Positions 36,963 through 64,000 of a DNA stretch of 64,000 bases are shown here, one piece after another. Numbering within the stretch: position 1 is the stretch's first letter; the number at the start of each line of letters is the position of its first letter. The translations under genes were made by a program, and so were the position numbers. This DNA is from Schmidtea polychroa (lineage: Eukaryota), in NCBI GenBank assembly GCA_044892525.1, contig CM097885.1:13952001-14016000 (forward strand), in the 5' to 3' direction. Below the pieces are notes generated by a model. It saw nothing but the letters and a program-made list of their open reading frames with translations. It ran no database searches and was not told the origin of the DNA.

Positions 36963-38793
36963 CCTATTTGTAGACCAGGAATTTTGTTCGGATACGAGAA
37001 CAAGGATATAGGTTGAAATCTCGAAAATAATAATAAGAAATAATAAGAATCCTAAGTACGAGCTAAAGAGTCAAAACCCTACAATTAATTTATTGATTGA
37101 ACACAGTATTAAGACACAAGAAAGGAATCAAATTCAGATTAACCTATCTTAAACAACAAATTTCCAGTCCTATATCCAGGCAAAGGCCTATCTATCTTAA
37201 ACCGCAAATCTACAGTTCCTACTGACCTATATCCCGGCAAAGGTCTAGATTCAAATCCTAGTTAAACTACCCCCGGACTCAAGGTCTTAAAATTTTTATT
37301 TTGAATAAAACTTTTGTACCAATATATATTATCGTTTATTATTATTTTTTATTTTACTTGTTATTACACAACACGCACCCCGATTGTCACGCCACAAGTT
37401 TTAACGGAGACTCTTTCGGGCTCATCAAATTTCTAATCTAACATTACAAATTCATACCACTCACAAAAACAAAATAGTCAAAAACATAATATAACAAGTA
37501 GTATGATTGGTCACCGCTGGACCACGTATACCCCCTCCCCCCCGGAATTTTTTTTTTAGAACGATGTAACATATTTTTAGAACTATTACGTAATCAATGC
37601 CTAATATTTTTAGAACGATGCCTAATATTTTTAGAACTATTATGTAATTTTTTTAAAATTAATTGGTCCAGCGGTGACCTAATTTTTTTCATCCCAAAAG
37701 TAATGTTTCTATCATCTGAATTTATTGAACGATACCTCATCTTAAAGCTCGGTCCAAGACCTTTCGAATGAGCTATAGGTATTTTATATATCTTTAATAG
37801 TTTGAATGTTATTAACAATTGATGACCACCATCTTTTCAAAGTTAAATTATTATTATTTTCCAAAATATTATTAATTGGTCCAGCGGTGACCTAATTTTT
37901 TTCATCCCAAAAATTAATGTTCCCATTATCCGAATTTATTGGACGATACCTCATCTTAAAGCTCAGTGCAAGACCTTTCGAATGAGCTATTGAAGGTATC
38001 ATCATCATTAATATTAACAAAGAGAATGACTCACCCAATGACTCACCCAACGATGCCTAATATTTTTAGAATGATTACGTCATAATTTTAGAACGATGCC
38101 ACATATTTTTAGAATGATGTCTAATATTTTTAGAACTATTACGTAATCAATGCCTAATATTTTTAGAACGATGTCTAATATTTTTAGAACGATGCCTAAT
38201 ATTTTTAGAACTATTACATAATCGATGCCACATATTTTTAGAACGATGCCTTATATTTTTAGAACGATGCCTAATATTTTTAGAACTATTACGTAATCGA
38301 TGCCACATATTTTTAGAACGATGTCTAATATTTTTAGAACGATGCCTAATATTTTTAGAACGATTACGTCATATTTTTAGAATGATGCCTAATATTTTTA
38401 GAACTATTACGTAATCGATGTCTAATATTTTTAGAACGATGCCAAATATTTTTAGAATGGTGCCTCTTATTTTTAGAATGAATACGTAATCAATGCCTAA
38501 TATTTTTAGAATGATTACGTCATACTTTTTGAACGATGTCTAATATTTTTAGAACGATTACGTCATACTTTTAGAACGATGCCTAATATTTTTAGAACTA
38601 ATAATTTTGTTTTAATTATCGATTACATAATAATTTAATTTTGTTTAAATCGTTGATTATATAATTTGTTTAAATCATTGATTATATTTATTATTATATA
38701 CTCCGAGTTTATCCGACACGATATTCTGTCCCCCTATGGGTACTGCACACAAGGGTACTACTCACACTCAACAAGTCACATGGGTACTGTTCA

Positions 38794-38829
<36 letters not shown>

Positions 38830-38832
38830 TTA

Positions 38833-38902
<70 letters not shown>

Positions 38903-41900
38903 ATTATTATTATTGCAAATATTAGTCAAAAAGATAAATTATTTTTACACACACACACAACTCATTAACCATTATTATTATCAATATTAGTGAAAACCTA
39001 AAATATTTTCTACACACATATACAACCCATTAAACTTTTATTATTAATATTATTATCTATATTATGATTATTATCAATATCAGTCAAAAACTTAAAATAT
39101 TTTCTACCCACATACACAACCCATTAAACTTTATTATTATTATTAGTGAAAAACCTAAAATATTTTTTTACACACACACACACACACAACCCATTAAACT
39201 TTATTATTATTATTATTAAAATAATTTTTACACACTAGGTTATGGGGTAGAGAATTATTATATGTTTGCAGTATTCTGTATTTGCCTTTACATGAAATTT
39301 TCAATAAGGAGCGATAATTTTACACATACATTCTATATACACATACCTTGTTTAACATGGGTGTATATACTTCTAGTCTATCCGACAAGATATTCTGTCC
39401 CCCGATGGGTATTGCTAGCAAGGGTACTACTCACATTCAACATGTCGCAAGGGTATATTAATTAGGGTTAGTAAATAAAACTTATGACACATACTATTTT
39501 TAATAATTCTTTAAACTATAAAAATCAAGACAAGAGAGGACAAGGCAAAGTTTATGCATTTATTATTACCAGGCCTAATGAGCAGTGACCAAATATCTGT
39601 GCCTGAAAGACACGGTGGATATTTGTTCGCGTCCACAAGGGTCGTCTGTGCCTCCCCAAGTGGGGTCAGAAGAACCTGGGCATTATAGCTTTCCGTACGG
39701 AACATTACGCCTAGCATGGGTAGTCAACTACCAGCACATTCGAAACGTATAATTTCAAAATACATGCGTCATTGGCACTATAACCAAATTAATTAATGTT
39801 TTCACTAACACAAATATATATTTACAGAGGCCTCCCACTAGTTGGATTACAACCGCCCACCACGACGATCAGCTTGTAAATATATATTAATTAAGGGATA
39901 AAGAGGACCCACCCAACCCTATTATATTTAATTTACAAATTTTTCTCGCTCTTCTGCTGGTATTCTATCTCAAAATTATCATCTCCATCGGGCCATTTGG
40001 AATACATCTTGCAAATTGGATGTATTTCTTAGTTTCTGATGCGGCGTCAACAATCATTGCTAAAATTTATATTGATTTAAAAGCAATTAACTTACATTAT
40101 CTAACATTTTATCATCACAGGCTTGATAAATTAGGCAACTGTTATTTGTGGTATACTTTTCAATGTCATTTCCCACCATAAAACACAGATACCTAAATAT
40201 AATATATATATATTTTAAAGAATTAATTCATGTCTTACATTAATAATAATATTCTTCAGGTAGTACTTTACAATATCTAATTGCTAAAACATCGGTTTTT
40301 CCCATTTTTCTTGACATTCGTTGAAAGTTTACATAATTTAAGTCTGATAATTCATGTTGAAGGACACCCACAATCAGCTAATTCATTTAAAAAATCCAGA
40401 ACATAGCAATGTTTCACCATTTTGTCTGGTTCATTTTCTTCTATAATTCATGTTTTAATAAGAAATTTCTAAATCCAGAACATAAGTCATTTAGTGTTTC
40501 ACCATTTTGTTCATCTTCTTCATAATCATATAATTCATTTTCTTCATTACTAAGTAAAATAATTAAAATATTGTAGTAAATTCTTTATTTACTTACTTTA
40601 TGGATACTAAAACGAAAGAAATAAAGTTATTTGAAAAGTATATTTAAATAAATTAAATTTAAATAATTTAAATTTAGTTATTTAAAAATATTTAAACAAT
40701 TTAGTTATTTAAGCATATTTAAACATTAACATTATTATATAGTATAATTTTATATAATATTATAATTTTATGTACACTTATATATCCTTCATTTAATTTT
40801 TTAAATTCAAAAATTTATAATGAAGATTCTTTGAATTAAAAATATTCTGTTAGTATTTCCAGGCAGAAAACAACGAATTCAATAATTAAAATCTTAATTT
40901 TCATGTTGTTAGGGTTGTGGTCAGAAGTTAATCGCCATCTATTCGTTTGTTCTCAATTTCGCTCATTTTTGTTCAAAACATTCAGGTGAGTTGTTATCTG
41001 GAAAGTTTCTTTTAGCTCAGCTTTGTTAAAACACTCACGGTATTCTTGAAAGATGTGACACTGGAAATAAATTAACAATGGGTGGTCATCCATACATGTT
41101 GGTGGTCTGAGCGGTCGATTTATTTAGAAATAGGTATAGTAAAAACATTTACGGTATCATTCAGTAAAATAATATAGTATTTTTGAGTATGTTTTAGTTA
41201 ATTTATAAATAACAGTATTTTGATATATCAATAAAGACCATATACTCCGAGTTTATCCGGCAAGATATTCTGTCCCCCTATGGGTAATGGTAGCAAGGGT
41301 ACTGGTCACACTCAACATGTCGCAATATTAATCATTTAGAAATTCTTAGGTAAGATAATCAGAAATTTGTGAATATTTTAAATGTAACTTTACACTTATG
41401 TCGAGCGACTAATTTATTGGTTAACTTTGTAGTCATTTAAAGCAAAAGGTAATTTATTCATCTAATGTTCGTTACAATAGTTAATAATATGAGAAAAACA
41501 TGGTCTTTATTCATTGATAATTTTAAATTCTTTATCATTTGGAGTAAATTTGTTTGAGGCAAAAATAATTAAAGGAGTCATAATAGAAATATGGTTATCA
41601 TTTATCCAATTAAGGGGCTTATTAGTTAGAAATATATATTATAAAGTAACAATTATTTTCTAATTTAATTAGATGATCATTAGACGTAATATATCTTTGC
41701 GAGAAATTTAAGATGTTTGAGTAACCAAAACATGGATATTTTGTGCGATAAATTTATGAATATTGGTTAATTTTGTTATTTTTAGTCATTTAAAATAATA
41801 TTTAGCAAAGGTAATTTAGCAAAATATCATTGAAAGATTTATCCATCCGATAATAATATTCCTTCAATAGATTTTACCTTTAATATTCAATCGATTTAAT

Positions 41901-42719
41901 TTCTAGAAATCTAATTAAAATCATAAAATTCCTTCAATAAAGATCAATTTTCTTTAGCCGTTGTCGATTTCCAACTTTTAAGTCAATATTTCTCAAGTTT
42001 TGTCACTGATGTCCCCACAATGAATAAAATAACTTCTTAAGTAAATAATTTAAAGCAATAACCTTTGATATCAATCCCAATTAATTCTAAAGATTTCAAA
42101 TATTTCATTGTGAAAACCAAGTAAATTGATCATTAACCCTAAACGACTTAATAAAACAGTGGATAATTAATAAAAAACTGGTTCTAAAACATAAATCTAA
42201 ATTACTGTGCAATAACATTCATCACAACCTAATAAACCTCTAAAACGATATAATTTCACAGGAACTATTATTAATTCATAGCTAAATTTGCCTAAATAAA
42301 ACACACCAGTACCTTTACGACCAGTACCCTTACGAGCAGTACCAATTGTGAACAGTACCCATAGAGGGAGAAAATATCTTGTCGGATAAACTCAGAGTAT
42401 ATATAATAAAACGAATTAACAATAACTCCATCAAATTGAATCAGTCAAATTAACACAAATTTTGATAAAAAATCTTATTCTAAAATGGTAAGAAGCGTAA
42501 AGTCGAAAGATAATTTTAATAACACCGAGATAAATTAACAATATTATTCTCAGGTGGTAAGAATCTTCATTAAAGTTAGGAAATTATTTATTATTCTGTG
42601 ATAAATTAATAATAAACTTCAAAGGGGTTAAAATAAGTGTTAGAATAATTCATTTTTGGATTATGGAAGGTTAATGAAAATATACTGAGAAGTGGCATGG
42701 ATATATATTAATTGTATTT

Positions 42720-43798
42720 AGTAGTATGATTGGAGCTCCCCAGATCAGGAGCTCCCCGCATCACATATACCCCCTCCCCCCCCCCCCGGAAAAAAAAATT
42801 TTTAGAACGATGCCACATATTTTTAGAACTATTACGTAATCAATGCCTAATATTTTTAGAACTATTACGTAATTTTTTTTAAATTAAGTGATCTGGCGGG
42901 CTCACACTTTTTTTCATCCCAAAAGTTAATGTTCCCACCATCAGAGTTTATTGACCGATACCTCATCTTAAAGCTCAGTCCAAGACCTTTCGAATGAGCT
43001 ATAGGTATCTTATATATCTTTAATAGTTTTAATATTATTAACATTTGATGACCACCATCTTTTCAAAGTTAAATTATTATTATTTTCCAAAATATTATTA
43101 AGTGATCTGGCGGGCTCACACTTTTTTTCATCCCAAAAATTAATGTTCCCATTATCCGAATTTATTAACCGATACCTCATCTTAAAGCTCAGTCCAAGAC
43201 CTTTCGAATGAGCCATAGAAGGTATCATCATCATTATTATTAACAAAGAGAATGAGTCACCCAATGACTCACCCAACGATGCCTAATATTTTTAGAATGA
43301 TTACGTCATAATTTTAGAACGATGTCTATTATTTTTAGAACGATGCCTAATATTTTTAGAATGATTACGTCATACTTTTAGAGCGATGCCTAATATTTTT
43401 AGAACGATGCCAAATATTTTTAGAATGATTACGTCATACTTTTAGAATGATGCCTAATATTTTTAGAATGATTACGTCATACTTTTAGAACGATGCCTAA
43501 TATTTTTAGAACGATGCCTATTATTTTTAGAATGATTACGTCATATTTTTAGAATGATGCCTAATATTTTTAGAATGATGCCAAATATTTTTAGAATGAT
43601 TACGTCATACTTTTAGAACGATGCCTAATATTTTTAGAACGATGCCAAATATTTTTAGAATTAATAATTTTGTTTTAATTATCGATGATTATATAATTTT
43701 GTTTAAATCATTGATTATATAATTCTTTTGTTTTAATTATCGAATACGTAATAATATAATTTGTTTAAATCGTTGATTACATATTATTATTTTCTAAG

Positions 43799-43840
<42 letters not shown>

Positions 43841-43941
43841 CATATATACACCGAGTCTATCCGACAAGATATTCTGTCCCCCTATGGGTACTGCACACAA
43901 GGGTACTACTCACATTCAACAAGTCACATGGGTACTGTTCA
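42720..43941 (+). repeat. Left TIR of the Maverick, with about 21-bp tandem array (gatgcctaatatttttagaac)
   Basis: Reverse complement of 57719-58943, with internal repeat-number differences. Confidence 0.9.
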
Positions 43942-44298
43942 TATTATTATTATTATTTTTTTTTACAACGATATTTAGTTACATGCTCACTGCAAACTAA
44001 AGTAAATATGAACAGTATTATCAAATTAAATAAAACTTTATAAAAATTTAAATTCTTTTAATGGCTCAAAACAAAGTCCTAATCCATAATGACAACATTA
44101 CTAGTTTTCAATAATAAAACAATTTTTAATATACTTTCTATGTTTAAACACTTAAGGAATGTTTAATAATATTACACAATATAATGATTTTTATCCATAG
44201 AAAGAAATACGAAAACTTTTCATTAATAAAAATCAACACAAATCAATGTTTTTACAAAGTTATATTAATTTATCACAGGAAAAAGATATTAAAATCGC

Positions 44299-47200
44299 TT
44301 AATCACTCAATTGTACATCATCAATATCAATTTCGTCACTCAATTGTACATCGTCAATATCAATTTCATCATTAGGATCATCACCAGAATCGAAATCTGG
44401 ACTTAAACCATTGAAAAGTGGACCCACTTCCTCATCACCAGAAACAAAATCTGGACTTAATCCTCCGAATAGTGCCCCAACTTCTTCAAATATTTGATCA
44501 TCATTTATATCATCTAGTGCTAAATAATGACCAAATGCGAGACTGGAATTTTTCCCCACCCAAAACCGCTTGTCGTCGTTGTTTGACAACGCGATTTTAT
44601 TGTTTTTAAATGTGTACAATTGATGGTTCCGCGTCCCTATCTTACTTTGTGGCACAGAAAATACTACGTTGTTATTGTAGCATTCTAAATATGAATCGTG
44701 CCTAATTTCTGTACCTATTAACCTAACTCCTTTTGCCTTTAAATGATCTTTAGCCCCTAACAAACTAAGAAAACCCATTCCTTATACCCTAGACTTTTAC
44801 TTTCATCTTTAAATTTACCTATCACCGAATCAAGGTTTCTAGAGTATAAGGGATGTGCAGGGTCATAGTTGGAAGTGTCTAAAAGATTGTCACGAATCAT
44901 TGCCGGCAAAAGAATGTCAAGCTTACAGTGCCTAACCTCAAGAAAAAAGGAGTCAGTATCGCCGGCAACGATATTTATCTCACATTTAAATTCATTTCTA
45001 TATTTAGCCAATTCTTTATACTGTAACTGGTACATCCTCAGTTTAGACAGGTCTAGCACCGTTTGGCCAATGTAACTAGGCCTGTCTAAACATATAGAAT
45101 CCTTATATAGATGTGCAGCAATCAAGTCATCATCAATTTTGATAGATTTCTTGAAAGTCGGCTTTGAAGCATATACAATCATCTTTTCAGCTGAATTGCA
45201 TAGCCTCAAATTCATCCGTTTTTTAAGGTTTTCTACGGATTTCCCATACAGACTATTATTAAATAATTTGTATAGATCCCTATATAATTCGCATGTAGAA
45301 TTGGCTCTCAAATTAGTGTTTTTGTCTATGTAAGATTTGAAAATGGGTGCATGCTTAAATTTGATTGCTCTATGTACATTTTTAATAATAGCCCCCAATT
45401 CTATATACAACTTGAGAAGTCGCCAATGAAGAACATGGTTCTTCTTCGGCCAATGCGTGAGCATCAGCTTCTCAACTTTAGAATTTGGCGGGCACATCTT
45501 TTCCGGAGCAAGAGGAAAATCATTCAGAAAGTCATGCAAACAAACAGGTATATCGATATCTACTTCCATAGTATAGCCATATGGAAGGTTATCGATATCA
45601 GCATTTATACATTCATTCAAGACAGAATCAAGATCATCATACACCCAAACAAAGTCAGCATAAGGCAGATTTTGGCTTAAGGCCCAACCATACAAGTTAT
45701 TAATATCAATATACAAGAGTTCTGTGTCTTCAGAACTTGCAACATAATGTTTGTTAACAAATGTTAACCCACCCCGTATCCCTCCTTCATAGAAATTAAA
45801 CATTTCCATGTCCTGCAGAAGTTCAATGGGTTCCGTTAATGTCATAAGCGCAGAGGCCCAAGACATACCGGGAATGCCATAGAAATTAAGAGGCTCAAGA
45901 CCATTGTAAGCAATGGCCTTTGCACGGAATTGTTGGAAATAGTCTGCGAGGAGAAACACGTCTAATTTAAGGTAAGTTAACATGTAATCTAACATGTTAT
46001 TGCAGTTTTGCTGAGTCCAAATTACTTGAGCTAATGCATATTCATCATTAGACACAGAATCCCAGATAGGTGGCAATTCAAGAGTCGATTCCAGAACCTC
46101 AAGAGATGTGGCAAAGTCATAAGGAAAGATACCTTTGGCTCGAACAATTGCGCCATCGAAAACAGAAGAAGTTAAAGGCAGATCGGAAAGAGTCTTAACC
46201 GCTTTTGCTAAAGATGAATTAACAAACTGCATGCTGTCAATAAAACGAACAGACAATTTGTTAATGTACGCGATAAGAGAGATGAATTTCTCAGTAGTGG
46301 TCGGAATAATATTTAATTCCCAAGAAGGAAAATTATTCAAACCATACTTCAAAATATGATGAAGATCATACCCCCTCAAATTGTGAAAAACCACAGGTAA
46401 CTGTTTCTGAATTCGTCGAGAAACATTACATTTCCTACAGGCAGCACCAAGATACTTACCTGAAAAGTGACAATGATCCCTAACTCTATTTCTAATGAAT
46501 TTTTTACAAAGGTAGCAGGTTCTGGAATCACGAAAGGCCCGCTCTTCAGCGAAAGACAAGGTTTGCATGGGCTTTTTCCCATTAATTTCGTAATATGGCA
46601 GGACAATTGTCATAGCAATTTCCTCCACCTTACGCAAGAAAGATAAGATACAATCATCCCCAACAAACTCATAATAAAATTTAGAGTTATTATAATTATT
46701 TATTAATAATAAACCTGCTGTTATTGGCAAATGCTTTTGATGGTGTATTATATCCCCCGGTAAAATTGATTCAAAGTCTGCATATATCACGAATGGTGGG
46801 GTTATGGTTTTCGCATAATTTTGAAAAATTAAATTTTTATCTTTGGGTAGCGTGTATAATGTAGTTCCTATCTGGTTTTTAATGCATAAGGCGACATGAA
46901 TATCAAATGCATTTTTATGTCTAAATCCGTTAAGACAATGGGGGCACCAGTTCACTTGAAGTCTAACGCCACATTCACTGCTAGAGCGACAATTCATTAG
47001 TCTTTGTAAGTTAAAAACTGCAGTATAATGGAAATTATCACCGTCTTCCAATAAAAGTAAGTATATGGGTTCACCACCTATAACCTTAGATCGGTGAATA
47101 ATATCTAATTGAGGATGATGTGGAATATAATTATCGTCAACTATATTTTCAAAAGGCTTAGCAGAGGTCGTTCTATAAGTTAAAACATTTATTGCTAAAT

Positions 47201-48305
47201 TTAAATCCTTATTTTTCATCTCGAATTTAGGAATATCACATAATTTCATTGGACAGTCGGAAATGGGGTCAAAATTTAACTCATCAAGATAATTTTCATA
47301 GGAACTAACTCTATTTCTATTTATATGTACAACATTACGTTTTAAAAGTGCTAAAATACTATATATAAAGCACATATCATCGGTGTTTTTGACGTTTACT
47401 ATTGCATTTTTAGATTTTAAAGATGATGGGGTGGGGATGTAACTATGTCCAGCTAGCCTATTCATATGTGTAAATTTTGTTAATATAAAATCTATTTCTT
47501 TGATTTTAACAACCCGCCATCCACTACCCAAATATGTGAATTTTTCTATTTTATTATTTAATTTGTGAACCCCCTCACTTAGAAAACTATCTGAAAAAGC
47601 CTCTGCCCTATTCGAGAAGAAATTATCTTTAATTTCACCATCTTTTTCAAATTGAATCAATACAGAGAATTGTATTTTCACCGACCCCATTCTGATTATT
47701 TCATGTTTTAACTTATTAACGATTTTATCGGTTATGGATATTTGAATGATGTTATCCTTTTCTACATTAAATCTTAGATTCTTTCGAACCCCCTTAAAAT
47801 CAATTTCGATTTCAGGTTCATCGTCAATATCGACTGAACCGCCTACTTGAATATTATTAACCACAGTTATTTGTTCTAATTTATTAATTTTAGAGGGAGC
47901 ATCAGACCCAATACTAACAGCAGGTCTTTTTAAATTATTATTTACATTAATAACATTATTAATTAGAGGTTTTGTAATATTATTTACATGTTTTGTATTA
48001 TTATTTACAGGTTTTGTAATATTATTTACAGGTTTTGTAATATTATTTACAGGTTTTGTATTATTATTTACAGGTTTTGTAATATTATTTACAGGTTTTG
48101 TATTATTTACATTAGTTTTAATTATAGGTTTTGCAGTATTTCGTAGTTTGTTAAATAAATCCTTTTTATTTAAAGAGAACTGATTTAAATGGGATTTATG
48201 TATACTGTAAAACTCTAAATATTTAATGCTATGGGAAGTCTCGCATATTGGGCATATATAGTACTTGATGCCATAAAATTTACGACCATAATATTTTTTC
48301 ATCAC
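44299..48305 (-). pseudogene. Protein-primed family B DNA polymerase (pPolB), frameshifted at about 44765
   Basis: Exonuclease motifs YADFES, FHNLRGYD and YLKLDV. Polymerase motifs YIDINNLYG, KLFNNSLYGK, GDTDS and GKFKDE. KAKGV and DDKR lie in another frame. An EndoVII-like RDHCHFSGKYLGAAC..CN motif is present. Confidence 0.93.
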
Positions 48306-48754
48306 TTTGTGACATAAATTTGAGTGACCAGTTGAAGCCTGGCAGTAATGTGGATAAAATTTGCCTGTTAATTATATTTATCAATTAATATTAATCATGA
48401 AATTAATATATCATTTATAGTTCTTTTATCATTTAGTTCTTATATGGATTTTACAATTATTGATATATGTTTCATTTAAATACAATATAAAAATGAAATA
48501 AATATTAATAATTGTAAAATATTAATAAAGTCTTGTAAACTATAATAGGGATTTTATTATTATTATTATTATTGTTTCTGTAGTTACATGCTCACTGTAA
48601 CCTACATGTTTATATAATAAGAGTCTTTAGTTGCATGCTAACTAAACATATTAAATTATTAAAATAATATTATAAAGAGAGTATATGTATAGAATAAAAA
48701 TATTAGTATTATTATTATTGATGTAGCTGCATGCTCAAAGATTGTAATTATTGC

Positions 48755-49258
48755 ATAATAAATAGTTTGATGCAGCTGCATGCAGACTACATTTAATAAA
48801 GGGTATTTATTACGTAATAAATAGTTTGATGCAGCTGCATGCAGACTACATTTAATAAAGGGTATTTATTACGTAATAAATAGTTGATGCAGCTGCATGC
48901 AGACTACATTTAATAAAGGGTATTTATTACGTAATAAATAGTTTGATGCAGCTGCATGCAGACTACATTTAATAAAGGGTATTTATTATGTAATAAATAT
49001 TTGATGCAGCTGACTGCTGACTACATTATTGGGACAATCATAATAAAAGAGATATGTAGCTGCATGCTGACTGCAGACTACATTTATTGGGGCAATCATA
49101 ATAAAAGAGATATGTAGCTGCATGCTGACTGCAGACTACATTTATTGGGGCAATCATAATAAAAGAGATATGTAGCTGCATGCTGACTGCAGACTACATT
49201 TATTGGGGCAATCATAATAAAAGAGATATGTAGCTGCATGCTCACTGCAGACTACAAG
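48755..49258. repeat. Two tandem arrays of about 60-bp units with (AT)GCAGCTGCAT / TAGCTGCATGC cores
   Basis: About 4 plus about 4 units read directly, upstream of pPolB. Confidence 0.9.
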
Positions 49259-49282
49259 ATATATTTTTATTACTATTTTTAA

Positions 49283-49322
<40 letters not shown>

Positions 49323-49397
49323 TTAACTAATGTAGTTGCTCATTGCAAACTACAAGGAATATTTTAAAACTATTGTTTCTTAAATACTTTTTAAACA

Positions 49398-49580: not shown

Positions 49581-49682
49581 ATAATAAGTTTTTATAAATA
49601 AGTTTTTAAAGAAAATGTTTAAAAAGTATTTAAGAAATTTACAAGGTTTTTAAAAAAATAAATATATAAAAATAAATAAATA

Positions 49683-50773: not shown

Positions 50774-50804
<31 letters not shown>

Positions 50805-50805: not shown

Positions 50806-50834
50806 ACAACAACAAAGGATACAAAATACATTTA

Positions 50835-52470: not shown

Positions 52471-52829
52471 TTTGCAAATATAGTTCCATGTCCTTTCATT
52501 CGTTTGTTTATACGCGATATTCCATGTCCTTTACGTTTTGGCGCTGGGACTGGAGGTGTATCTTTTTGAAACATACCAGCAACTCCAGGTAGAACCTTCC
52601 CTAACTCAGCTAAAGCATTTGTTTTTAGGGATGGTAATATTTTCTGTTCATTCATAATCACATCTTTTGCAGTTTTCATGCCAAAACTACCAATACGTTT
52701 AAGAATGGGAAGTGCAAATCTCCCTATTGTTTTTAACCAACCTGATCCATACTGTTTACCAATAAAATATGGTAATTCACCACCAGATTGGCTATCACTA
52801 TACATACTAATAATATCGGAATTAGCCAT
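52467..52829 (-). CDS. Small basic virion core-like protein with an amphipathic helix
   Basis: QSGG, QYGSGWLKTIGRFALPILKRIGS, KRKGHG; lies between mCP and MCP. Confidence 0.7.
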   Translation of the reverse strand: MANSDIISMYSDSQSGGELPYFIGKQYGSGWLKTIGRFALPILKRIGSFGMKTAKDVIMNEQKILPSLKTNALAELGKVLPGVAGMFQKDTPPVPAPKRKGHGISRINKRMKGHGTIFAK

Positions 52830-53889
52830 CTACTTTACGAAAATGTAGTGTCAAATGAGTTTTTGAGTCTTTTGGGAAGTTTATAAGTTTTCCACTATCG
52901 TCACGAATATTTATTTCTATATTGTTTATACATGAGCTTGAAATTGGTAAATACATGGGATTATCTATATTTATATTGACAACTTCATCATGTTCATATT
53001 TTCCAATCCACACCGATTTCAATAGAGGAACACTGGAATCACCAACTATTATAGGCTCAATAATATTAGTATATATGAACATTTGTTGATGATGTTCAAG
53101 TATTCTTGGTTTACGTATACCAGCCGATTTTTCCCGATATTGCTGCTTCTCTAATCCAAGTGTATTTGTCAAATTTTTATCAAATGTAACTTCGCAAATG
53201 TCATCATTCAAACTGAAGGTAAATAACAAATCTTTCACAATATCCAAACTTTTAAATATGTGTGAACAATTATACTTTAAATATTTAAGTAACACATCAA
53301 GTTTATCAATATATAATTCGTCAGCGAAGGTGAATGATTCTTCAACTTCATTATTATACGACACTGAAATTTTGATTTCTTCTCTCATTACACTGTTTGC
53401 TTCAAATAGATCAAAGCGTAATAAATATTCTGTTTCCATAACTTCATTTTTCAACTTATTGCAACCCATTCGTCTGGCATCTTCAATATATTCGAATGTT
53501 ATTGTAAATGGTTTAAAATCACAACTGATATTTAATCCATCCTTGTAAAACATAGTGCAATGCTGATCTAATATTTGATTCGGAATATGATATGTTTTAT
53601 CATAATTACTGATAATAAAGATACCACTACATGTTTTCATAGCATTCCTTTTGAAATCAATCTTACATTGACTATAAAATGGGAATGTATTGTACACGAA
53701 TGTAAAATCTTGCAGTGCAACTTCCCAGTCACCATTTAAAGAAATCGGATTCTGGAGATTGACCATGAATTTACTGGCTTGATTATCTGGATGAATAAGC
53801 GGGCAACTATTGCTTGGTAAAATAGTATAAAAATTCACTTTACTAGATCCTTTTCTGATATCCATGATGGGTTTTGATAACCATGCCAT
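52822..53889 (-). CDS. Minor capsid protein (penton-like); start uncertain
   Basis: FYTILPSN...F.V.L..PI.L.G.WEVAL, YTNIIEP.IVGD..VPLL, IEINIRDDSG..I.F and LTLHFRK. Confidence 0.85.
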   Translation of the reverse strand: MAWLSKPIMDIRKGSSKVNFYTILPSNSCPLIHPDNQASKFMVNLQNPISLNGDWEVALQDFTFVYNTFPFYSQCKIDFKRNAMKTCSGIFIISNYDKTYHIPNQILDQHCTMFYKDGLNISCDFKPFTITFEYIEDARRMGCNKLKNEVMETEYLLRFDLFEANSVMREEIKISVSYNNEVEESFTFADELYIDKLDVLLKYLKYNCSHIFKSLDIVKDLLFTFSLNDDICEVTFDKNLTNTLGLEKQQYREKSAGIRKPRILEHHQQMFIYTNIIEPIIVGDSSVPLLKSVWIGKYEHDEVVNINIDNPMYLPISSSCINNIEINIRDDSGKLINFPKDSKTHLTLHFRKVDG

Positions 53890-54890
53890 TTGACATAGTA
53901 TTGTTTATCCTTGCCTTTATTTTTAGTTTTCAAAATCTTCTGAATTCTAAATACTTTTGGGGGAGGAATAACTTGTAATTCCTGCTCATAAAATTTTCCT
54001 TGTACAATATTGTTATCATTGTCTTCGATGACATACATTACAGGATTCTGTTTAGTATTTATTTTTGAAATTACAAAGACTTCATCACACCAATTCGTAT
54101 CAAAATTTTTAATAAATGGTGATGCACTAATTTTACTAATTCTAACATGGTCACCTACTTTATATTTCGGTTTTGTAATTTTTTCATGTTTTTTAGAATA
54201 GATTGTTTTTGACGTGATATCAATCGGCCTTAATCCATTCAGTCCTTGATGTGATGAGTGATTATAACTGGTTATTATTTTTGGTAAAACCGATACCCAT
54301 TTTTTATTACCTTGATGCACGAATAATTTCTTTAATCTATCTCTCAAAGTTCGGTTAAATCTTTCAACATGAGCAGCTTTGTATTGAGAATGTACTGAGT
54401 AATGGTTTATTTTCATTTTATTGAGGATTTGCTTGACTTTACTGTTGTAGAATTCTTTACCTAAAATAATAATAATAATAATAAAAATAATAATATTAAT
54501 ACCTAAATCAGTTTGCAAGTTTTTAGGATGTCCATCTTTAAATAAATGATTAACAGCTTTGGACATTTCATCTGCAGATTTTGCCTTGACGGGTATTGCT
54601 CGGGCAAACCGACTGAATACATCAATACATGTTAAAATATATTTATACCCATTGTTAATTTTCGAATAGGGTATCATCTCCATCAAATCCATTTGCCATA
54701 AATCATTTATTCCATATGTTTTATATGCTCTTGTTGGGAATCGTTTCTGCATTGGTTTGTTCAAACTGTACGCAAGCTGGTCTGATAACCACTTCTGAGT
54801 TTCCTTTTTCGAATTCGGAACTCTTTTCCTTAATTTTGCCACTCCACCAAAACCGGCTTCGTCTTCCGGGTTCGTCCAAATCTTCTCCAT
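53835..54890 (-). CDS. Retroviral-type (c-)integrase with C-terminal chromodomain; intron 54461-54502
   Basis: WQMDL, CIDVFSR, QTDLG/KEF, ERFNRT, YNHSSH and a chromo-like YYVKWHGY...SWI. Confidence 0.95.
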   Translation of the reverse strand: MEKIWTNPEDEAGFGGVAKLRKRVPNSKKETQKWLSDQLAYSLNKPMQKRFPTRAYKTYGINDLWQMDLMEMIPYSKINNGYKYILTCIDVFSRFARAIPVKAKSADEMSKAVNHLFKDGHPKNLQTDLGINIIIFIIIIIILGKEFYNSKVKQILNKMKINHYSVHSQYKAAHVERFNRTLRDRLKKLFVHQGNKKWVSVLPKIITSYNHSSHQGLNGLRPIDITSKTIYSKKHEKITKPKYKVGDHVRISKISASPFIKNFDTNWCDEVFVISKINTKQNPVMYVIEDNDNNIVQGKFYEQELQVIPPPKVFRIQKILKTKNKGKDKQYYVKWHGYQNPSWISEKDLVK

Positions 54891-54951
54891 TACAACAAGA
54901 AGATTTAATATTAAATTTAATGTCTGGTAATGAAGGATTAGCACCCATTGT

Positions 54952-55440
54952 TTATGATCGACTTCCTATTATTCCACCTAATAATGATATTGCTAAAGGT
55001 ATCAATGCACCGATAAATCCCCCTTGTTGTTTATATATAATTTTTCTCATTTGTTGACGATTTTTATTATTTACTAATGATAGCAAAGGTTTCCTATGTT
55101 TACTCAATAATTGCTTTTTAGATTTACTGATTTTAATCTTGCCTTTGACTACTTTAAGTATAATATCGAGTAAATCATCGACAACATAATTTGGAAATGA
55201 TTGCAAAATACTGTTTCTTTTCATACTTGGTGCCTTTAACAATGTATTGAAAAACGGGAAACTCCGATGATTTTTAACAACTTTTACTTTCTTAGTGGTT
55301 TTACTTTTAGGTTTAGGATTTTTCGAAATAAGATTCATTGCAGGAAAATTTTCTGTAATAAGTTCTTTAGATGGAGTATAACTAGTTGTTGGTGGAACTT
55401 TTGGTTGTTTTTTACCCGATATCCTTGTTTTTGAAAACAT
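54952..55440 (-). CDS. Basic Maverick structural protein with C-terminal QQGG-FIGALIPLAISLLGG hydrophobic peptide
   Basis: Lys-rich ORF between ATPase and integrase, with a GG/F adenain-like cleavage motif. Confidence 0.7.
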   Translation of the reverse strand: MFSKTRISGKKQPKVPPTTSYTPSKELITENFPAMNLISKNPKPKSKTTKKVKVVKNHRSFPFFNTLLKAPSMKRNSILQSFPNYVVDDLLDIILKVVKGKIKISKSKKQLLSKHRKPLLSLVNNKNRQQMRKIIYKQQGGFIGALIPLAISLLGGIIGSRS

Positions 55441-55453
55441 GATTTATATGTTT

Positions 55454-56092
55454 TCAACTTTGTTTTGAACTTTGTTTATATACCATGGCACCTTTTGGGT
55501 TGAAAATATCTGTTTTTACGCGTATATCATCAGGGCATTGTTGTGTGAAATCGAGAAATATATACCCATGCGGTATTTTCGTGGCATCTTGAAATGCACT
55601 GATAAGAAAATTACGGTTATTAGGGTATGCTTGTCGTCCAAGAAAATCAATGACAGTTGCATCTCTAGGATTCTTGAAAATAACTAAATATTGTACATTT
55701 AAATTACGTGTTCGATGTGCACCACCTTGATGAAATAGATTTTGTGTTATGAAAATAACTGTTACACCAACATGTCTGCTGATTTTTGTGAATAAATTAT
55801 TAAAGTCCTTTTCTTTATTGGCTTCTTGATACAAATCATCGATAATGATGACATCATCTTTCTTCAAACGACTTGACCAGTTTTTATCAAAGCCCTTTAC
55901 TATTTTCATGTTTTTCAACTGACAGAAACTTGATTGCGTCAATCCGTGTTCTTCGTCGGCGCCCCTATGCCAATAAATATTGTTGAATTTTGTTTTAAAC
56001 AAATTTGATTTTAGTAATTTACAAACAAATAAAGTTTTCCCGCTACCACTTGGACCAACGATTTGGTATACTGCATCATTTCGTAATTCCAT
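55454..56092 (-). CDS. FtsK/A32-like DNA packaging ATPase
   Basis: Walker A GPSGSGKT, Walker B IIIDD, FTKISRH...IFITQN and FKNPRD. Confidence 0.95.
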   Translation of the reverse strand: MELRNDAVYQIVGPSGSGKTLFVCKLLKSNLFKTKFNNIYWHRGADEEHGLTQSSFCQLKNMKIVKGFDKNWSSRLKKDDVIIIDDLYQEANKEKDFNNLFTKISRHVGVTVIFITQNLFHQGGAHRTRNLNVQYLVIFKNPRDATVIDFLGRQAYPNNRNFLISAFQDATKIPHGYIFLDFTQQCPDDIRVKTDIFNPKGAMVYKQSSKQS

Positions 56093-56202
56093 TTTTTAAA
56101 TTTAAACTATATAATTATTGTTTATATTGATAATTTAAATGAACTCTGTTTTTAAATACCTATATATATATATATCAAAGTTTTTAAAATTATTTCATTA
56201 AA

Positions 56203-56667
56203 ATGCTTTCAAATATAAATTACAGGGCAAAAACTGATGTATCAAAAATGGTATTTCCAATAGGGAAACCACAACAACTTATCAATAGAAGTAATAAATA
56301 TCCAATAATATATTTCAAAACTGGTAAATGTAGAATTATGGGGTGTAAGGAAATAATCAAAGCTAGTGAATATAATGTTTATGATTTAGAAATACAATCG
56401 ATAACCGTAACTTCCGATATAGGTTTTTCTTGTAATTTAAATAAATTAGCTAAATTAATACCATGCTTTTATGAACCAGAATTATTTCCAGCTTTGAGAT
56501 ATATAAAATATAACCCTATGTGTGTAAATATATTCGCTAGCGGTAAGATAGTAATTCTTGGAATAAAAAATATTGATTACAAATGTATAGTTGATAATAT
56601 CATATCTGAAATTAAATCAATAATTGAAGGAAAAGAATTTTTAGATTTTTTATTATCACTTAATTAA
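56203..56667 (+). CDS. TATA-box binding protein (TBP)-like protein encoded by the Maverick
   Basis: Two TBP repeats: LSNINYRA...IIYFKTGKCRIMGCK and IQSITVTSDIGF...LNKLA...YEPELFPAL...VNIFASGKIVILGIK. Confidence 0.88.
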   Translation: MLSNINYRAKTDVSKMVFPIGKPQQLINRSNKYPIIYFKTGKCRIMGCKEIIKASEYNVYDLEIQSITVTSDIGFSCNLNKLAKLIPCFYEPELFPALRYIKYNPMCVNIFASGKIVILGIKNIDYKCIVDNIISEIKSIIEGKEFLDFLLSLN

Positions 56668-56775
56668 TTATTTATCATTCAATTAAAACAAAAACATACT
56701 GCAATCTGATTGGATGATAAACAATAGTCATAGGTATAAAAACCCTGTACCATTTCATTTTAATCATAATTCACA

Positions 56776-57195
56776 ATGACCAAGAAAATTTCAAGCACTG
56801 AAAAACCAAAAGTAGTTCCAGAACTTGTACAACCTGTTCAAATGTTCCACAACTACAAAATGTATTTTTTAAAAGAAGAAATCAATATGAAATTGGTGTC
56901 ACCGATCAAGCTAATTCCTACCCAATTTCAATTCTTAACCGGCACGCTTTCAATGTTAGATATTAAAACCATAGATGATGTTTTCAAAAGGTTGAATACG
57001 AATCTATCATGCAATCAAAATGCATTTTTCAACAACCGATATGCAAAATTTTATGATTCCTTTGATGAAATCAGTTTCAAAGAAAACGAAAATTGGTATA
57101 TATCAATTACAATCCAAGGATATAAAGTTGATAATAATGATGTGTATTCTCCAATTTGGAAAATTATGTCTGCTAGACTTTCACAGTTATTTTAA
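56776..57195 (+). CDS. Hypothetical Maverick protein, 139 aa
   Basis: Clean ATG ORF, preceded by TATAAAA (about 56735) and a reverse CCAAT box (about 56710). Confidence 0.65.
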   Translation: MTKKISSTEKPKVVPELVQPVQMFHNYKMYFLKEEINMKLVSPIKLIPTQFQFLTGTLSMLDIKTIDDVFKRLNTNLSCNQNAFFNNRYAKFYDSFDEISFKENENWYISITIQGYKVDNNDVYSPIWKIMSARLSQLF

Positions 57196-57291
57196 TGTTG
57201 TATTTAATAAATGTATTTAGTCATATTTGTTTTCGCTTATATTCTATATTTTCTATAAACAAATATATACTATAGTTTTAAAATACTAATA

Positions 57292-57650
57292 ATGACTACA
57301 GAAAAAGGTTAATATGATTAGTTAATTATCGAATTATTTAATATTTAGAATTTATAATAAACTTTTTATTGGAAAAATTAGCAGAAATATCTGGTGTGAA
57401 AATGGCGGATATATTATCTGTTACAAACGCATTAAATATAGACTGGGTAGCAGAGAGTGAAGATTCGGAATTTGATGAAACAGATGAAGAAAACACTCAA
57501 GATGATGAGGAAAGCATTCAAGAAATTGATGAACCTATGGAGGAATTTACGGATACTGAACCGTGTGTATATAGGGATTGTATAGATCATGTTGTTGAAA
57601 ATGTTATGAACTGTGGAGATGATGAATGTGAATGTGTTAATAAATTTTAG
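57292..57650 (+). CDS. Spliced acidic protein (MTTEKEFIINFLLEKLAEISG...); intron 57308-57348
   Basis: A 41-bp GT-AG intron joins ATG 57292 in frame to ORF 57369-57650. Confidence 0.65.
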
Positions 57651-57718
57651 TGTATATTTAAAGAATAATATTTAGAATTTAGAAAGTTTTGTCTTGAATA
57701 TTTTTATCAGTAATTTTG

Positions 57719-57818
57719 TGAACAGTACCTTGTGACTTGTTGAGTGTGAGTAGTACATTTGTGTGCAGTACCCATAGGGGGACAGAATATCTTGTCGGAT
57801 AGACTCGGTGTATATATG

Positions 57819-57857
<39 letters not shown>

Positions 57858-58943
57858 CTTAGAAAATAATAATATGTAATCAACGATTTAAACAAAATTA
57901 TATTATTACGTATTCGATAATTAAAACAAAAGAATTATATAATCAATGATTTAAACAAAATTATATAATCATCGATAATTAAAACAAAATTATTAATTCT
58001 AAAAATATTAGGCATCGTTCTAAAAGTATGACGTAATCATTCTAAAAATATTAGACATCGTTCTAAAAATATTAGGCATCGTTCTAAAAATATGTGGCAT
58101 CGATTACGTAATAGTTCTAAAAATATTAGGCATCATTCTAAAAATATTTTTGAAAATAATAATAATTTTTTCATCAATCAGTGTCGGACTAAAAAATTAA
58201 TAACTTTTATACCACTAGTGATAAAAATTATTTCGATAGCTCAAAAGATTTGTCTCCGTCTGGTCTTCAAAATGATGTATAAATATTCAAATAAATTTGA
58301 AAACTCAAAAAGTTCTGGGAAGTCAAAAGGTAGGTCACCGCCAGCACAGTTAATAATATTTTTGAAAAATAATAATATGGCATCGTTCTAAAAATATGTG
58401 GCATCGATTACGTAATAGTTCTAAAAATATTAGGCATCGTTCTAAAAATAATAGGCATCGTTCTAAAATATTAGACATCGTTCTAAAATAAGAGGCATCG
58501 TTCTAAAATAAGAGGCATCGTGCTAAAAGTATGACGTAATCATTCTAAAAATATTAGGCATCGTTCTAAAAATATTAGGCATCGTTCTAAAAATATTAGA
58601 CATCGTTGGGTGAGTCATTGGGTGAGTCATTCTCTTTGTTAATAATAATGATGATGATACCTTCTATGGCTCATTCGAAAGGTCTTGGACTGAGCTTTAA
58701 GATGAGGTATCGGTCAATAAAATCTGATGGTGGGAACATTAACTTTTGGGATGAAAAAAAGTGTGAGCCCGCCAGATCACTTAATTTAAAAAAAAATTAC
58801 ATAATAGTTCTAAAAATATTAGGCATTGATTACGTAATAGTTCTAAAAATATGTGGCATCGTTCTAAAAATTTTTTTTTCCGGGGGTGGGGGGTATATAT
58901 GATGCGGGGAGCTCCTGATCTGGGGAGCTCCAATCATACTACT
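57719..58943 (-). repeat. Right TIR of the Maverick
   Basis: Mirror of the left TIR; carries an extra block at about 58150-58375. Confidence 0.9.
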
Positions 58944-61900
58944 GTATTTATTTAAAATTATTTCATAAAATTCATAAATTTCATAAAAATTCATAAAAAA
59001 CGTTCACTTTAATAAAAAAAAAATATTTAATACAATTTTAAAAGAAAAAAATTTGCCGGGAGAATATAAATGATAATAATTAGTAAGAAATCGAGAGTCG
59101 GCGGCTATAAGTGATGAGGATATATAAAATTATTTCTATTATATGAGCTACTAACGAATTAAAATATTTTAATAATGTGATAAACTTTTATTTAATAAAG
59201 TATTTAATCCCCAAATGATTATTTTATTACATAAGAAACCGTGAATTGTATTTGACAGAGTAATTATGATAAATTCATATTTTAAATTATTCTTTAAGTC
59301 CTTTAATATTAACAATTTATTATTAAATTTACTATTTTACACTAATTATTTCATTTTCAAAAACAAATATTCCAAAAGATAATTTAAGATACATTACTCT
59401 TTTTAATGAAAATGAGCACTGAAAGTTAAAAGGTACACTCGAAAACTCACTCAAATATAACCGAAAGTTATAAAACAACAAAACTAAATTCGTTTAAATA
59501 TTTTATAGCAATTGGTAGTTCTTATAATTTCCTAACTTTAATGAAGATTCTTACCACCTGAGAATAATATTGTTAATTTATCTCGGTGTTATTAAAATTA
59601 TCTTTCGACTTTACGCTTCTTACCATTTTAGAATAAGATTTTTTATCAAAATTTGTGTTAATTTGACTGATTCAATTTGATGGAGTTATTGTTAATTCGT
59701 TTTATTATATATACTCTGAGTTTATCCGACAAGATATTTTCTCCCTCTATGGGTACTGTTCACAATTGGTACTGCTCGTAAGGGTACTGGTCGTAAAGGT
59801 ACTGGTGTGTTTTATTTAGGCAAATTTTTGGTTATTATTTAGCATTAAATTCGTTGGTAATTTTTAGAGTTAGCGGGATTTTACTAACATTATTACTAAC
59901 CTTTTTGTGAATAATTGAAAGAATATTTTGAAATTTAACGTTTTAGTGTTAATTCTAAGACAAATTTAATTAATTTCTTGATAATTTGCTATATTTTATT
60001 GACTTGTTTTTAAATTTACTTTTAAATAAAAATTATTTTTAATGACAGTTAGGTTAATAATTAGAGTTTTTACAATAATCAAGTGATTATTATTTAATTT
60101 TTGTAAAATATATTGTAAAATATACTGAAATTTGTGATTTTGAAAGATATATCACGTTATAATTGCTATATAATTAACTGAATCGATGAAGAATTATGAT
60201 CAATCGATATATTTCATTTCTAGATAGGTATTTGATGGTAAATGTGGTGAAATATTTGTAGAAAATATTGATTTTAGTGAATTTTGATCTTTTAGTGGGC
60301 TCTTACTACATGAATTTAGATACTAAATTATTTCAATGGAAGGATGTCTGTAACAATTAAATAAAATTCATATTTTGAAGAATTTTCTATGGATTTTAAG
60401 AGAATTGATATATTAAAGTCGGTTGGTTAAGATGGTAATATATGATTTTTAAGGGGGTGTTTAAAATGATAGAAATATTTGGTGAGGGATCGGTTAAGGT
60501 GGAAATGTTTGAAATCTCTATTTAAATCGACAATGTTCTTATTGGTAAAATTTTAAAGGGAAATAGTCAGTATTTAGCTATGAATTAATAATAGTTCCTG
60601 TGAAATTATATCGTTTTAGAGGTTTATTAGGTTGTGATGAATGTTATTGCACAGTAATTTAGATTTATGTTTTAGAACCAGTTTTTTATTAATTATCCAC
60701 TGTTTTATTAAGTCGTTTAGGGTTAATGATCAATTTACTTGGTTTTCACAATGAAATATTTGAAATCTTTAGAATTAATTGGGATTGATATCAAAGGTTA
60801 TTGCTTTAAATTATTTACTTAAGAAGTTATTTTATTCATTGTGGGAACATTAGTGACAAAACTTGAGAAATATTGACTTAAAAGTTGGAAATCGACAACG
60901 GCTAAAGAAAATTGATCTTTATTGAAGGAATTTTATGATTTTAATTAGATTTCTAGAAATTAAATCGGTTGAATATTAAAGGTAAAATCTATTGAAGGAA
61001 TATTATTATCGGATGGATAAATGATATTTTCCTAAATTACCTTATTATATTATTATTTTAAGGACAAAATTAACCAATATTCATAAATTGATTGCACAAA
61101 ATATCCATGTTTTGGTTACTCAAACATCTTAAATTTCTCGCAAAGATATACTACGCCCAATGATCATCTAATTAAATTAGAAAATAATTGTTACTTTATA
61201 ATATATATTTCTAACTAATAAGCCCCTTAATTGGATAAATGATAACCATATTTCTATTATGACTCCTTTAATTATTTTTGCCTCAAACAAATTTACTCCA
61301 AATGATAAAGAATTTAAAATTATCAATGAATAAAGACCATGTTTTTCTCATATTATTAACTATTGTAACGAACATTAGATGAATAAATTACCTTTTGCTT
61401 TAAATGACTACAAAGTTAACCAATAAATTAGTCGCTCGACATAAGTGTAAAGTTATATTTAAAATATTCACAAATTTCTGATCATCTCACCTAAGAATTT
61501 CTAAATGATTAATATTGCGACATGTTGAATGTGACCAGTACCCTTGCTAGCAATACCCATAGGGGGACAGAATATCTTGCCGGATAAACTCGGAGTATAT
61601 GGTCTTTATTGATATATCAAAATACTGTTATTTATAAATTAACTAAAACATACTCAAAAATACTATATTATTTTACTGAATGATACCGTAAATGTTTTTA
61701 CTATACCTATTTCTAAATAAATCGACAGCTCAGACCACCAACATGTATGTATGACTACCCATTGTTAATTTATTTCCAGTGACACGTCCCTTAAAAATAC
61801 CGTGAGTGTTTTAACAAAACTGAGCTCAAAGAAACTTTCCAGATAACAACTCACCTGAATGTTTTGAACAAAAATGAGCGAAATTGAGAACAAACGATTA

Positions 61901-62239
61901 GATGGCGATTAACTTCTGGCCACAACCCTAACAACATGAAAATTAAGATTTTAATTATTGAATTCGTTGTTTTCTGCCTGGAAATACTAACAGAATATTT
62001 TTAATTCAAAGAATCTTCATTATAAATTTTTGAATTTAAAAAATTAAATTAAGGATATATTAAATTTACAATACATAATATTATAATATTATAATATTAT
62101 ATAAAATTATATAAAATTATACTATATAATAATATTAATGTTTAAATATGCTTAAATAACTAAAGTGTTTAAATATGTTTAAATAACTAAATTTAAATTA
62201 TTTAAATATAATTCTGATTTAACGTTATTTCTTTCGTTT

Positions 62240-62936
62240 TAGTATCCATAAAGTAAGTAAATAAAGAATTTACTAAAATATTTTAATTATTTTACTTAGT
62301 AATGAAGAAAATGAATTATATGATTATGAAGAAGATGAACCAGATAAAATGGTGAAACACTAAAAGACTTATGTTCTGGATTTAGAGATTTCTTATTAAA
62401 ACATGAATTATTGGATTATGAAGAAGTTGAACCAGACAAAATGGTGAAACACTAAAGGAGTTATAGTTCCGGATTTCTTAAATGAATTAGCTGATTGGGG
62501 GTGTCCTTCAACATGAATTATCAGACTTAAATTATGTAAACTTTCAACGAATGTCAAGAAAAAATGGGAAAAACCGATGTTTTATCAATTAAGTAAAGTA
62601 CTCGTCATACCTGAAGAATATTATTATTAATGTAAGATATGAATTAATTCTTTAAAATATATATATTATATTTAGGTATCTGTGTTTTATGGTGGGAAAT
62701 GACATTGAAAAAGTATACCACAAATAACAGTTGCCTAATTTATCAAGCCTGTGACGATAAAATGCTAGATAATGTAAGTTAATTGCTTTTAAATCAATAT
62801 AAATTTTAGCAATGATAGTTGACACAGCATCAGAAACTAAGAAATATGTCCAATTTGCAAGATGTATTCCAAATGGCCCGATGGAGATGATAATTTTGAG
62901 ATAGAATACCAGCAGAAGAGCGAGAAAAATTTGTAA
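62240..62936 (+). pseudogene. Multi-exon gene remnant in the outer element arm; mirror at about 39935-40610 (-)
   Basis: gtaagt...ttag short introns flank coding-like blocks (VLQHELSDLNYVNFQRMSRK; YLCFMVGNDI; CLIYQACDDKMLDN). Frames are disrupted. Confidence 0.4.
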
Positions 62937-64000
62937 ATTAAATATAATAGGGTTGGGTGGGTCCTCTTTATCCCTTAATTAATATATATTTACAAGCTGA
63001 TCGTCGTGGTGGGCGGTTGTAATCCAACTAGTGGGAGGCCTCTGTAAATATATATTTGTGTTAGTGAAAACATTAATTAATTTGGTTATAGTGCCAATGA
63101 CGCATGTATTTTGAAATTATACGTTTCGAATGTGCTGGTAGTTGACTACCCATGCTAGGCGTAATGTTCCGTACGGAAAGCTATAATGCCCAGGTTCTTC
63201 TGACCCCACTTGGGGAGGCACAGACGACCCTTGTGGACGCGAACAAATATCCACCGTGTCTTTCAGGCACAGATATTTGGTCACTGCTCATTAGGCCTGG
63301 CAATACTAAACGCATAAACTTTGCCTTGTCTTCTCTTGTCTTGATTTTTTTTCGTTTAAATATTAAAGTATTATTTACTAACCTTAATTAATATACCCTT
63401 GCGATATGTTGAGTGTGGGTAGTACCTTTGTGACCATTACCCATAGGGGGACAGAATATTTGGTCGGATAGGCTAGGAGTATATTCACCCATGTTAAACA
63501 AGGTATGTGTATATAGAATGTATGTATAAAATTATCGCTCCTTATTGACAACTTCCTGTAAAGGCAAACACAGAATACTGCAAACATAATAATACTCTAC
63601 GCCATAACTTAGTATGTAAAAATTATTTAAGGTTTTTTCACTAATAATAATAATAATAATAATTGTTAATGGGTTGTGTGTGTGTGTAAAAAATATTTGA
63701 GGTTTTCACTAATATTGATAATAATAATGGTTTATGAGTGTTTTTATGTTTTTGACTAATATTTGCAATAATAATAATGGTTAATGGGTTGTGTGTGTGT
63801 GTGTGTAGAAAATATTTTAGGTTTTCACTAATATTGATAATAATAATTGTTAATGGGTTGTGCGTGTGTAAAAAAAAAATTTTAAGTTTTTGACTAGTAT
63901 TTGCAATAATAATAATATTGATAATAATAATTGTTAATTGGTTGTGTGTGTGTTTTTATGTTTTTGACTAATATTTGCAATAATAATAATAATAATAATA

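Follow-up and report, generated by a model that had tools for sequence, protein, structure and literature searches.

The window analysed here, a stretch of 64,000 nucleotides of Schmidtea polychroa (GCA_044892525.1, CM097885.1:13,952,001-14,016,000, forward strand), holds a Maverick/Polinton transposon inserted into the spacer of a second element. This outer element begins with a related Maverick-type end, has no core genes and consists almost entirely of two long inverted arms. The ends and the symmetry were mapped by an AGTAGT/ACTACT scan plus a self-BLAST of the window, and the two elements are composed as follows:

37,491-37,496: ATAACA, predicted from the sequence as left target site duplication (TSD) of the outer element, its partner falling outside the window
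37,497-38,797 (~38,800), plus strand: outer left terminal inverted repeat (TIR) of Maverick type, with the AGTAGTATGATTGG end
38,798-42,587, plus strand: remaining outer left arm, gene-less, without 748 bp at 42,284
42,588-42,719: left part of the asymmetric spacer, 132 bp, ending in the TSD copy GTATTT
42,720-58,943: inner Maverick/Polinton, 16,224 bp, with AGTAGT/ACTACT ends, TIRs and a 6-bp TSD
42,720 to ~43,945 and ~57,719 to 58,943: inner TIRs, each about 1.2 kb
58,944-59,523: right part of the spacer, 580 bp, starting with the TSD copy GTATTT, many-copy in public contigs
59,524-64,000, minus strand: outer right arm, crossing the window edge and containing the 748-bp segment 59,828-60,575

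The 14-base end AGTAGTATGATTGG (chance expectation for the window about 0.0007 matches) begins at 37,497 and again at 42,720, and its complement finishes at 58,943. The inner element thus has the (AGT)2//(ACT)2-ended TIRs of a Maverick, and it is flanked on both sides by the 6-bp TSD GTATTT (42,714-42,719 and from 58,944; chance ~0.0008). Because it carries this TSD of its own, which is firm evidence for the order of events, the inner Maverick was inserted after the outer element was in place, as a preliminary description of the locus had proposed. The same description had seen a second terminus at 37,497 with a TIR related to the inner one. The terminus is present, and the outer and inner left TIRs are 92.9% identical over ~1.3 kb (1,025 matches, 78 mismatches); their first 14 bases are the same and they diverge from base 15. 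The outer left TIR is laid out as the AGTAGTATGATTGG end, a 214-bp duplicated unit, a 21-bp tandem array and an inner motif of ~90-100 bp. The duplicated unit is also found in the inner left TIR and is missing from the inner right TIR, which has an unrelated piece of ~220 bp at 58,150-58,370.

The mirror symmetry of the outer arms stops exactly at 42,587/59,524, the limits given before, and the sequence from ~38,890 matches that from 64,000 inward. Arms 39,200-42,587 and 59,524-63,640 align with 3,206 matches, 97 mismatches and 22 gaps (~97% alike), one of the gaps being a 748-bp indel (59,828-60,575) with a 4-base microhomology. Without the inner Maverick and one TSD copy the spacer is AT-rich and measures 132+580-6 = 706 bp, in agreement with an earlier figure of about 0.7 kb, and amounts to 6% of the empty outer element. 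Its two parts do not mirror each other: 92 of 300 shuffles reach a score as high, and no hidden symmetry was found in it. Between the insertion point and the arms lie 132 bp on the left side and 580 bp on the right; the Maverick is therefore inside the spacer, as had been described, although not at its centre. The empty outer element would be about 11.6 kb long (~12 kb), ~94% of it mirror arm. The near-palindrome claimed earlier is real, and the arm length of more than 5 kb is an extrapolation (to ~5.8 kb) from the 4,477 bp of right arm within the window, which mirror the left arm down to ~38,890. The outer right end, ...CCAATCATACTACT, is predicted near 65,360 (65.2-65.5 kb), beyond the window.

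No core genes were found in the outer element, consistent with the preliminary description: tblastn with 240 capsid and polymerase relatives gave no match outside the inner Maverick within the window, and when the right spacer and arm were read through in all six frames, no Pfam match fell below E 0.03. The arms resemble the Maverick only in the TIR, in a ~90-bp motif and in ATT runs, and so they are not a deleted Maverick core. The ~90-bp motif is located at the inner end of every Maverick TIR. Seven copies are present in the visible arms versus two in the Maverick, and the predicted total for the arms is eight:

outer left arm: from 38,696 (plus), 39,365-39,455 (plus), from 41,240 (plus) and 42,334-42,402 (minus)
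outer right arm, as mirrors: from 59,709 (plus), 61,516-61,600 (minus) and 63,394-63,484 (minus)
inner Maverick: from 43,844 (plus) and 57,719-57,815 (minus)

Each copy has two to four GGTACT-type boxes, and together the copies hold 19 of the 32 such hexamers in the window; the motif is a candidate binding or packaging signal. The arms also contain a sequence resembling the head of the 7SL RNA of the signal recognition particle (SRP):

39,775-39,873 (minus), with its mirror at 62,996-63,094 (plus): 7SL/SRP Alu-domain-like head, match to RF00017

The first 44 positions of the model align, including two hairpins and the UGUAA motif, with 29.6 bits (E 1e-5 to 4e-4); the gathering score of the family is 70. 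The sequence resembles the Alu 5' domain of metazoan SRP RNA and is not a full-length 7SL gene, since the S domain (~200 model positions) is missing and the score stays under 70 bits. The head sits in a 452-bp arm stretch free of mismatches, and a T-run is located ~110 bases from its start on the putative transcribed strand. Other candidates in the arms were discarded. In the GC-richer part, 46 windows of 150 bases scored on both strands gave a best z of -2.9, in an AT-rich repeat, and no z below -1.5 at 39,520-39,820, so that structured RNA was dropped except for the 7SL head. No tRNA genes were found. A decayed gene with leucine-rich repeats suspected by eye at 59,850-60,900 was dropped after no Pfam match appeared in six frames; one of its three plus frames (59,844-61,043) gave no match among 1.84 billion proteins.

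Parts of the outer left arm are contained in 19 public sequencing runs, six of which hold at least half of its words. We aligned the contigs of four of these (X16, X1, X17 and X18, three from one study and one from another) to positions 58,610-63,600, excluding X7-X15, which have a small share of the words. Respectively 93,511, 13,190, 8,481 and 12,766 contigs aligned, and 30 of 30 bins were covered in each run. There are 199 variable places, and the spacer has 13 of those 40 that were listed. Since thousands of contigs with variable places cover all bins, arm and spacer are, as judged from these contigs, a many-copy, variable family in this organism. A contig with a depth of 388 spans the spacer-arm joint (59,486-59,614), other listed pieces of the same run having depths of 5-770. 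Summed contig depth is not copy number, a caveat that applies to all depth comparisons here. The arm/spacer ratio of summed depth was 2.0, 4.1, 3.8 and 4.2 in the four runs, in the direction to be expected if every spacer has two arms. The 748-bp segment had 1.2-2.3 times the depth of the rest of the arm in all four runs, and therefore the left arm lost it. The preliminary description had recognized this indel, with ~745 bp (to 60,573), as an addition to the right arm; the indel stands, at 748 bp and ending at 60,575, while its insertion into the right arm is rejected because of the depth.

At 58,899, within the inner-type terminus, the summed depth was 250k in X16 and 6.9k in X1, and most of the listed spacer places were deeper (268-1,214k and 0.8-205k, respectively), so that in these two runs many spacers probably lack this Maverick. 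Outside these runs, scans of metagenomes with the terminus pattern and with the motif pattern gave no matches. The 14-base end occurs at 120 loci in viral contigs, none of which matched the TIRs, the arms or the Maverick interior by blastn, and these occurrences were attributed to chance; no capsid relatives were found in viral contigs.

The neighbouring second giant palindrome, with arms 99.4-99.8% identical, might suggest that the outer palindrome arose during assembly or amplification, as a fold-back artefact at a real Maverick. The outer arms, on the other hand, differ by their 97 substitutions, 22 gaps and the 748-bp deletion, the spacer has no mirror symmetry, the spacer-arm joint is crossed by a contig from another sample and the outer TIR is a distinct variant. 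We regard such an artefact as hardly credible.

Starting from the established ends, inner TSD, arms, absence of core genes, many-copy state and order of events, we interpret the outer element as a complete non-autonomous fold-back Maverick satellite (~12 kb) that was later hit by an ordinary Maverick insertion, with a probability of about 0.72. The related end, the lack of core genes and the many-copy arm and spacer are the reasons for reading it as a non-autonomous, Maverick-ended fold-back element, and to that extent the satellite derivative suggested before is retained. The uneven mismatches and shared minority letters between the arms fit patchy arm-to-arm copying, rather than a fresh perfect hairpin. 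Mismatch-free tracts of 574 bp around the 748-bp deletion and of 452 bp around the 7SL head were reached in 283 and 23 of 20,000 permutations, respectively, with clustered mismatches merged. Among 20 variable arm sites the left arm carries the minority letter of the right arm at six, where 2.5 are expected (p 0.02; 0.08 without one doubtful site). The inner TIR parts compared have 9 differences in 611 positions, whereas the outer arms have 97 in 3,303 (p 0.04), a contrast in line with the inner Maverick being the younger of the two.

Several observations weigh against this interpretation. The outer right end and the outer TSD are not seen, both being beyond the window. The distal parts of the arms (39,200-39,568) have 32 mismatches in ~350 positions (9%) compared with 2.2% elsewhere (p 1e-9), and a divergence that is highest distally is the opposite of what end-directed correction would leave. 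Only six of the 20 minority letters are shared, and thus the arms are far from fully homogenised. The age contrast is weak without the distal part (1.5% vs 2.2%), and the inner TIR parts used for it, the non-tandem ones, were picked by hand. As to the copies, the depth at 58,899 in X17 (76k) and X18 (8.4k) is above most listed spacer depths and gives no support for a majority of empty spacers in these runs, and X16 is possibly the source sample itself. The matches listed, namely 24 of the 3,580 loose ends, 15 of the 278 joints and 32 of the ~115,000 pieces (a share that is uninformative either way), include neither an empty-site joint nor a loose end at 58,944, and none of the listed pieces crosses the Maverick-spacer joint at 58,943/58,944.

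The 9% divergence of the distal arms also makes a chimeric or truncated copy possible: ectopic recombination would have fused the left end of one insertion to the right arm of another, and the right end would be missing or flanked by something other than ATAACA. The patchy arm identity could be accommodated in the same way; the many-copy family would supply recombination partners, the neighbourhood is rearranged, with its second giant palindrome, and 12 of 170 Galileo copies are chimeras with non-matching flanks in the accessible text of PMC3573991. The symmetry, however, runs without a break to the window edge and reaches the ATT run adjoining the outer left TIR, and next to the divergent distal part there are CA/ATT repeats and a motif copy open to exchange with the others. 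For these reasons we consider a chimeric or truncated copy unlikely, and a complete satellite remains the preferred reading of the outer element.

The genes of the inner Maverick are the following:

44,299-48,302 (minus): protein-primed DNA polymerase B, PF03175 E 3e-27, split by a frameshift near 44,766
50,839-51,176 (minus): adenovirus-type cysteine protease, Peptidase_C5 E 1e-6, open frame with a candidate start only
51,178-52,470 (minus): double-jelly-roll major capsid protein, 430-aa open reading frame (ORF)
53,835-54,890 (minus): rve integrase with chromodomain, rve E 7e-8, with a 42-nt in-frame AT-rich GT..AG insert
55,454-56,092 (minus): A32-like packaging ATPase, Pox_A32 E 2e-7
56,203-56,667 (plus): short TATA-binding-protein (TBP) homologue, PF00352 E 3e-15

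The polymerase has 1,280 relatives among 8,000 candidates, and the frame changes at ~44,766 in six of six homologue alignments. An intron as the cause of the split is ruled out, since the homologues are colinear across the site and the frame changes. The capsid ORF exceeds that of its closest relative (407 aa, 98% identical) by 23 codons, and the tail formed by this extension has low confidence in the structure model. The model as a whole (predicted local distance difference test, pLDDT, 91.9) identifies the protein as a double-jelly-roll capsid, with Foldseek matches of E 2e-17 to the capsids of iridovirus, PBCV-1 and mavirus; sequence searches of solved structures gave no matches for the polymerase or for the capsid. 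Three ORFs that are candidates for the minor capsid, PZ and PW proteins (52,822-53,889, 52,467-52,829 and 54,952-55,440) had no significant match in a Pfam search. The insert in the integrase (~54,460-54,500, minus) is a possible intron, as is a putative short AT-rich GT..AG insert at the start of the protease (~51,170-51,215, minus). Two neighbouring tandem arrays of 59 and 58 bp are found at 48,744-49,256, upstream of the polymerase gene.

In its ends, TIRs, 6-bp TSD, length of 16 kb, protein-primed polymerase, integrase, ATPase, protease and capsid the inner element agrees with Maverick/Polinton as presented in the accessible parts of PMC8097293 and PMC4046053. It differs from the copies called intact in the former, as far as that text goes, by the polymerase frameshift, the longer capsid ORF and the intron-like inserts (intact vertebrate Mavericks have no introns; PMC8097293), and it carries a TBP homologue. 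An intact Maverick has all core ORFs uninterrupted, and the polymerase frameshift, which could be an assembly error, takes the inner element out of that class. As assembled, and because of this frameshift, it would be a passenger and not a present helper, unless the damage consists of assembly errors. The part of the preliminary description in which it was a possible helper inserted into its satellite is accordingly not upheld.

The nesting might nevertheless be functional, with Mavericks targeting the loop of the satellite or persisting in it and the 27.9-kb composite being copied as a unit of helper plus satellite. The small size of the spacer would be in favour of this, although there is one case only, the site is off-centre, AT-rich and without special symmetry, and the polymerase is frameshifted. 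In addition, the spacer is mostly deeper than the inner terminus in X16 and X1, and at 27.9 kb the composite clearly exceeds the 15-20 kb range of Mavericks given in the accessible portion of PMC4046053. A functional pair is very improbable in our opinion. With 6% of the empty element being spacer, a single insertion there needs no targeting, and an ordinary insertion is the most likely origin of the nesting; the unusual part is the mirror-image repeat family. If one-sided insertions are lost from the arms, cases nested in the spacer could become enriched.

Under the satellite interpretation, the polymerase and integrase of intact Mavericks elsewhere would act in trans on the outer element, as suggested by the identity of the 14 terminal bases and the 93% similarity of the TIR. 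The displaced strand would fold back on the long arms and restore a duplex end or origin. Maverick replication is still a model, based on a fold-back single strand and protein priming. A panhandle model of this kind has been described for Polintons and casposons (PMC4046053, in its accessible part). Patchy arm-to-arm copying may then have given the mismatch-free tracts and the 748-bp microhomology deletion, and the Maverick would have landed in the AT-rich spacer largely by chance.

A further, rather doubtful possibility is that the satellites are akin to snap-back defective genomes, each one long hairpin, rich in motifs and with a captured 7SL Alu head. Their dose of the ~90-bp motif would be four times that of the helper (eight predicted vs two), by which they would win polymerase or packaging. 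Arm-to-arm copying would remove one-sided insertions and leave the loop as the only lodging site for a helper. If this were true, nested pairs would be a predictable footprint of the replication mechanism.

The outer element shares with Maverick/Polinton its left end motif and a related TIR, and differs by the absence of core genes and by being nearly all mirror arm. Like non-autonomous DNA transposons and miniature inverted-repeat transposable elements (MITEs), it is gene-less, many-copy and has ends in common with an autonomous partner. MITEs are a few hundred bases long, and the ~11.6 kb of the outer element place it outside that class; nor is it a deletion derivative, its interior not being that of a deleted Maverick. 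Non-autonomous Polintons as such were reportedly recorded in Repbase and by Kapitonov and Jurka in 2006. Such elements appear to be absent in the anole according to the accessible text of PMC3014272, and the available portion of 10.1101/2025.02.07.637071 yielded nothing on them.

The two-TIR and extended-TIR copies of Galileo are also non-autonomous, consist mostly of long repetitive TIRs extended from inner sequence and include chimeras (PMC3573991, accessible text). Galileo, in the same text, is a cut-and-paste element of the P superfamily with TIRs of up to ~1.3 kb and 7-bp duplications, whereas the element described here has Maverick-type ends and arms of a predicted ~5.8 kb. The outer element, with its Maverick-type end and no transposase match, is outside the P superfamily. 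Nested elements in polinton-like viruses and rearrangements driven by Polinton TIRs are already published. In the former the guests are retrotransposons, as far as the accessible part of PMC12220804 shows, while here the guest is an autonomous relative. In the latter, the C. elegans eri-6/7 case, host genes are inverted (10.1101/2024.01.15.575659, available portion), while here the host is a gene-less palindromic derivative. No description of giant palindromic Maverick satellites was found in the accessible literature searched, a body that leaves most subscription papers and Repbase outside.

A gene-less derivative that is nearly all arm isolates what is needed in cis, i.e. the end, the TIR and the multiplied ~90-bp motif. 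With such elements the fold-back model becomes testable from genomes alone, by the correction of one arm against the other and by a pile-up of insertions in the loop. The nesting itself, a single case with a broken guest, dates the order of events and little more.

Further inverted repeats lie in the neighbourhood of the outer element. The second giant palindrome pairs positions 1-13,546 with 21,673-35,245, its arms being 99.4-99.8% identical in three aligned blocks, and it crosses the left edge of the window. Both of its arms hold TRAF-like exons (RING, zf-TRAF, MATH) and a piece of DDE_1 transposase, and an inner inverted pair is found at 13,542-14,404/19,014-19,876. Between the two palindromes there is an older inverted repeat pair (35,404-36,806 and 20,165-21,673; identity 73-87%), which probably represents a further mobile element present twice.

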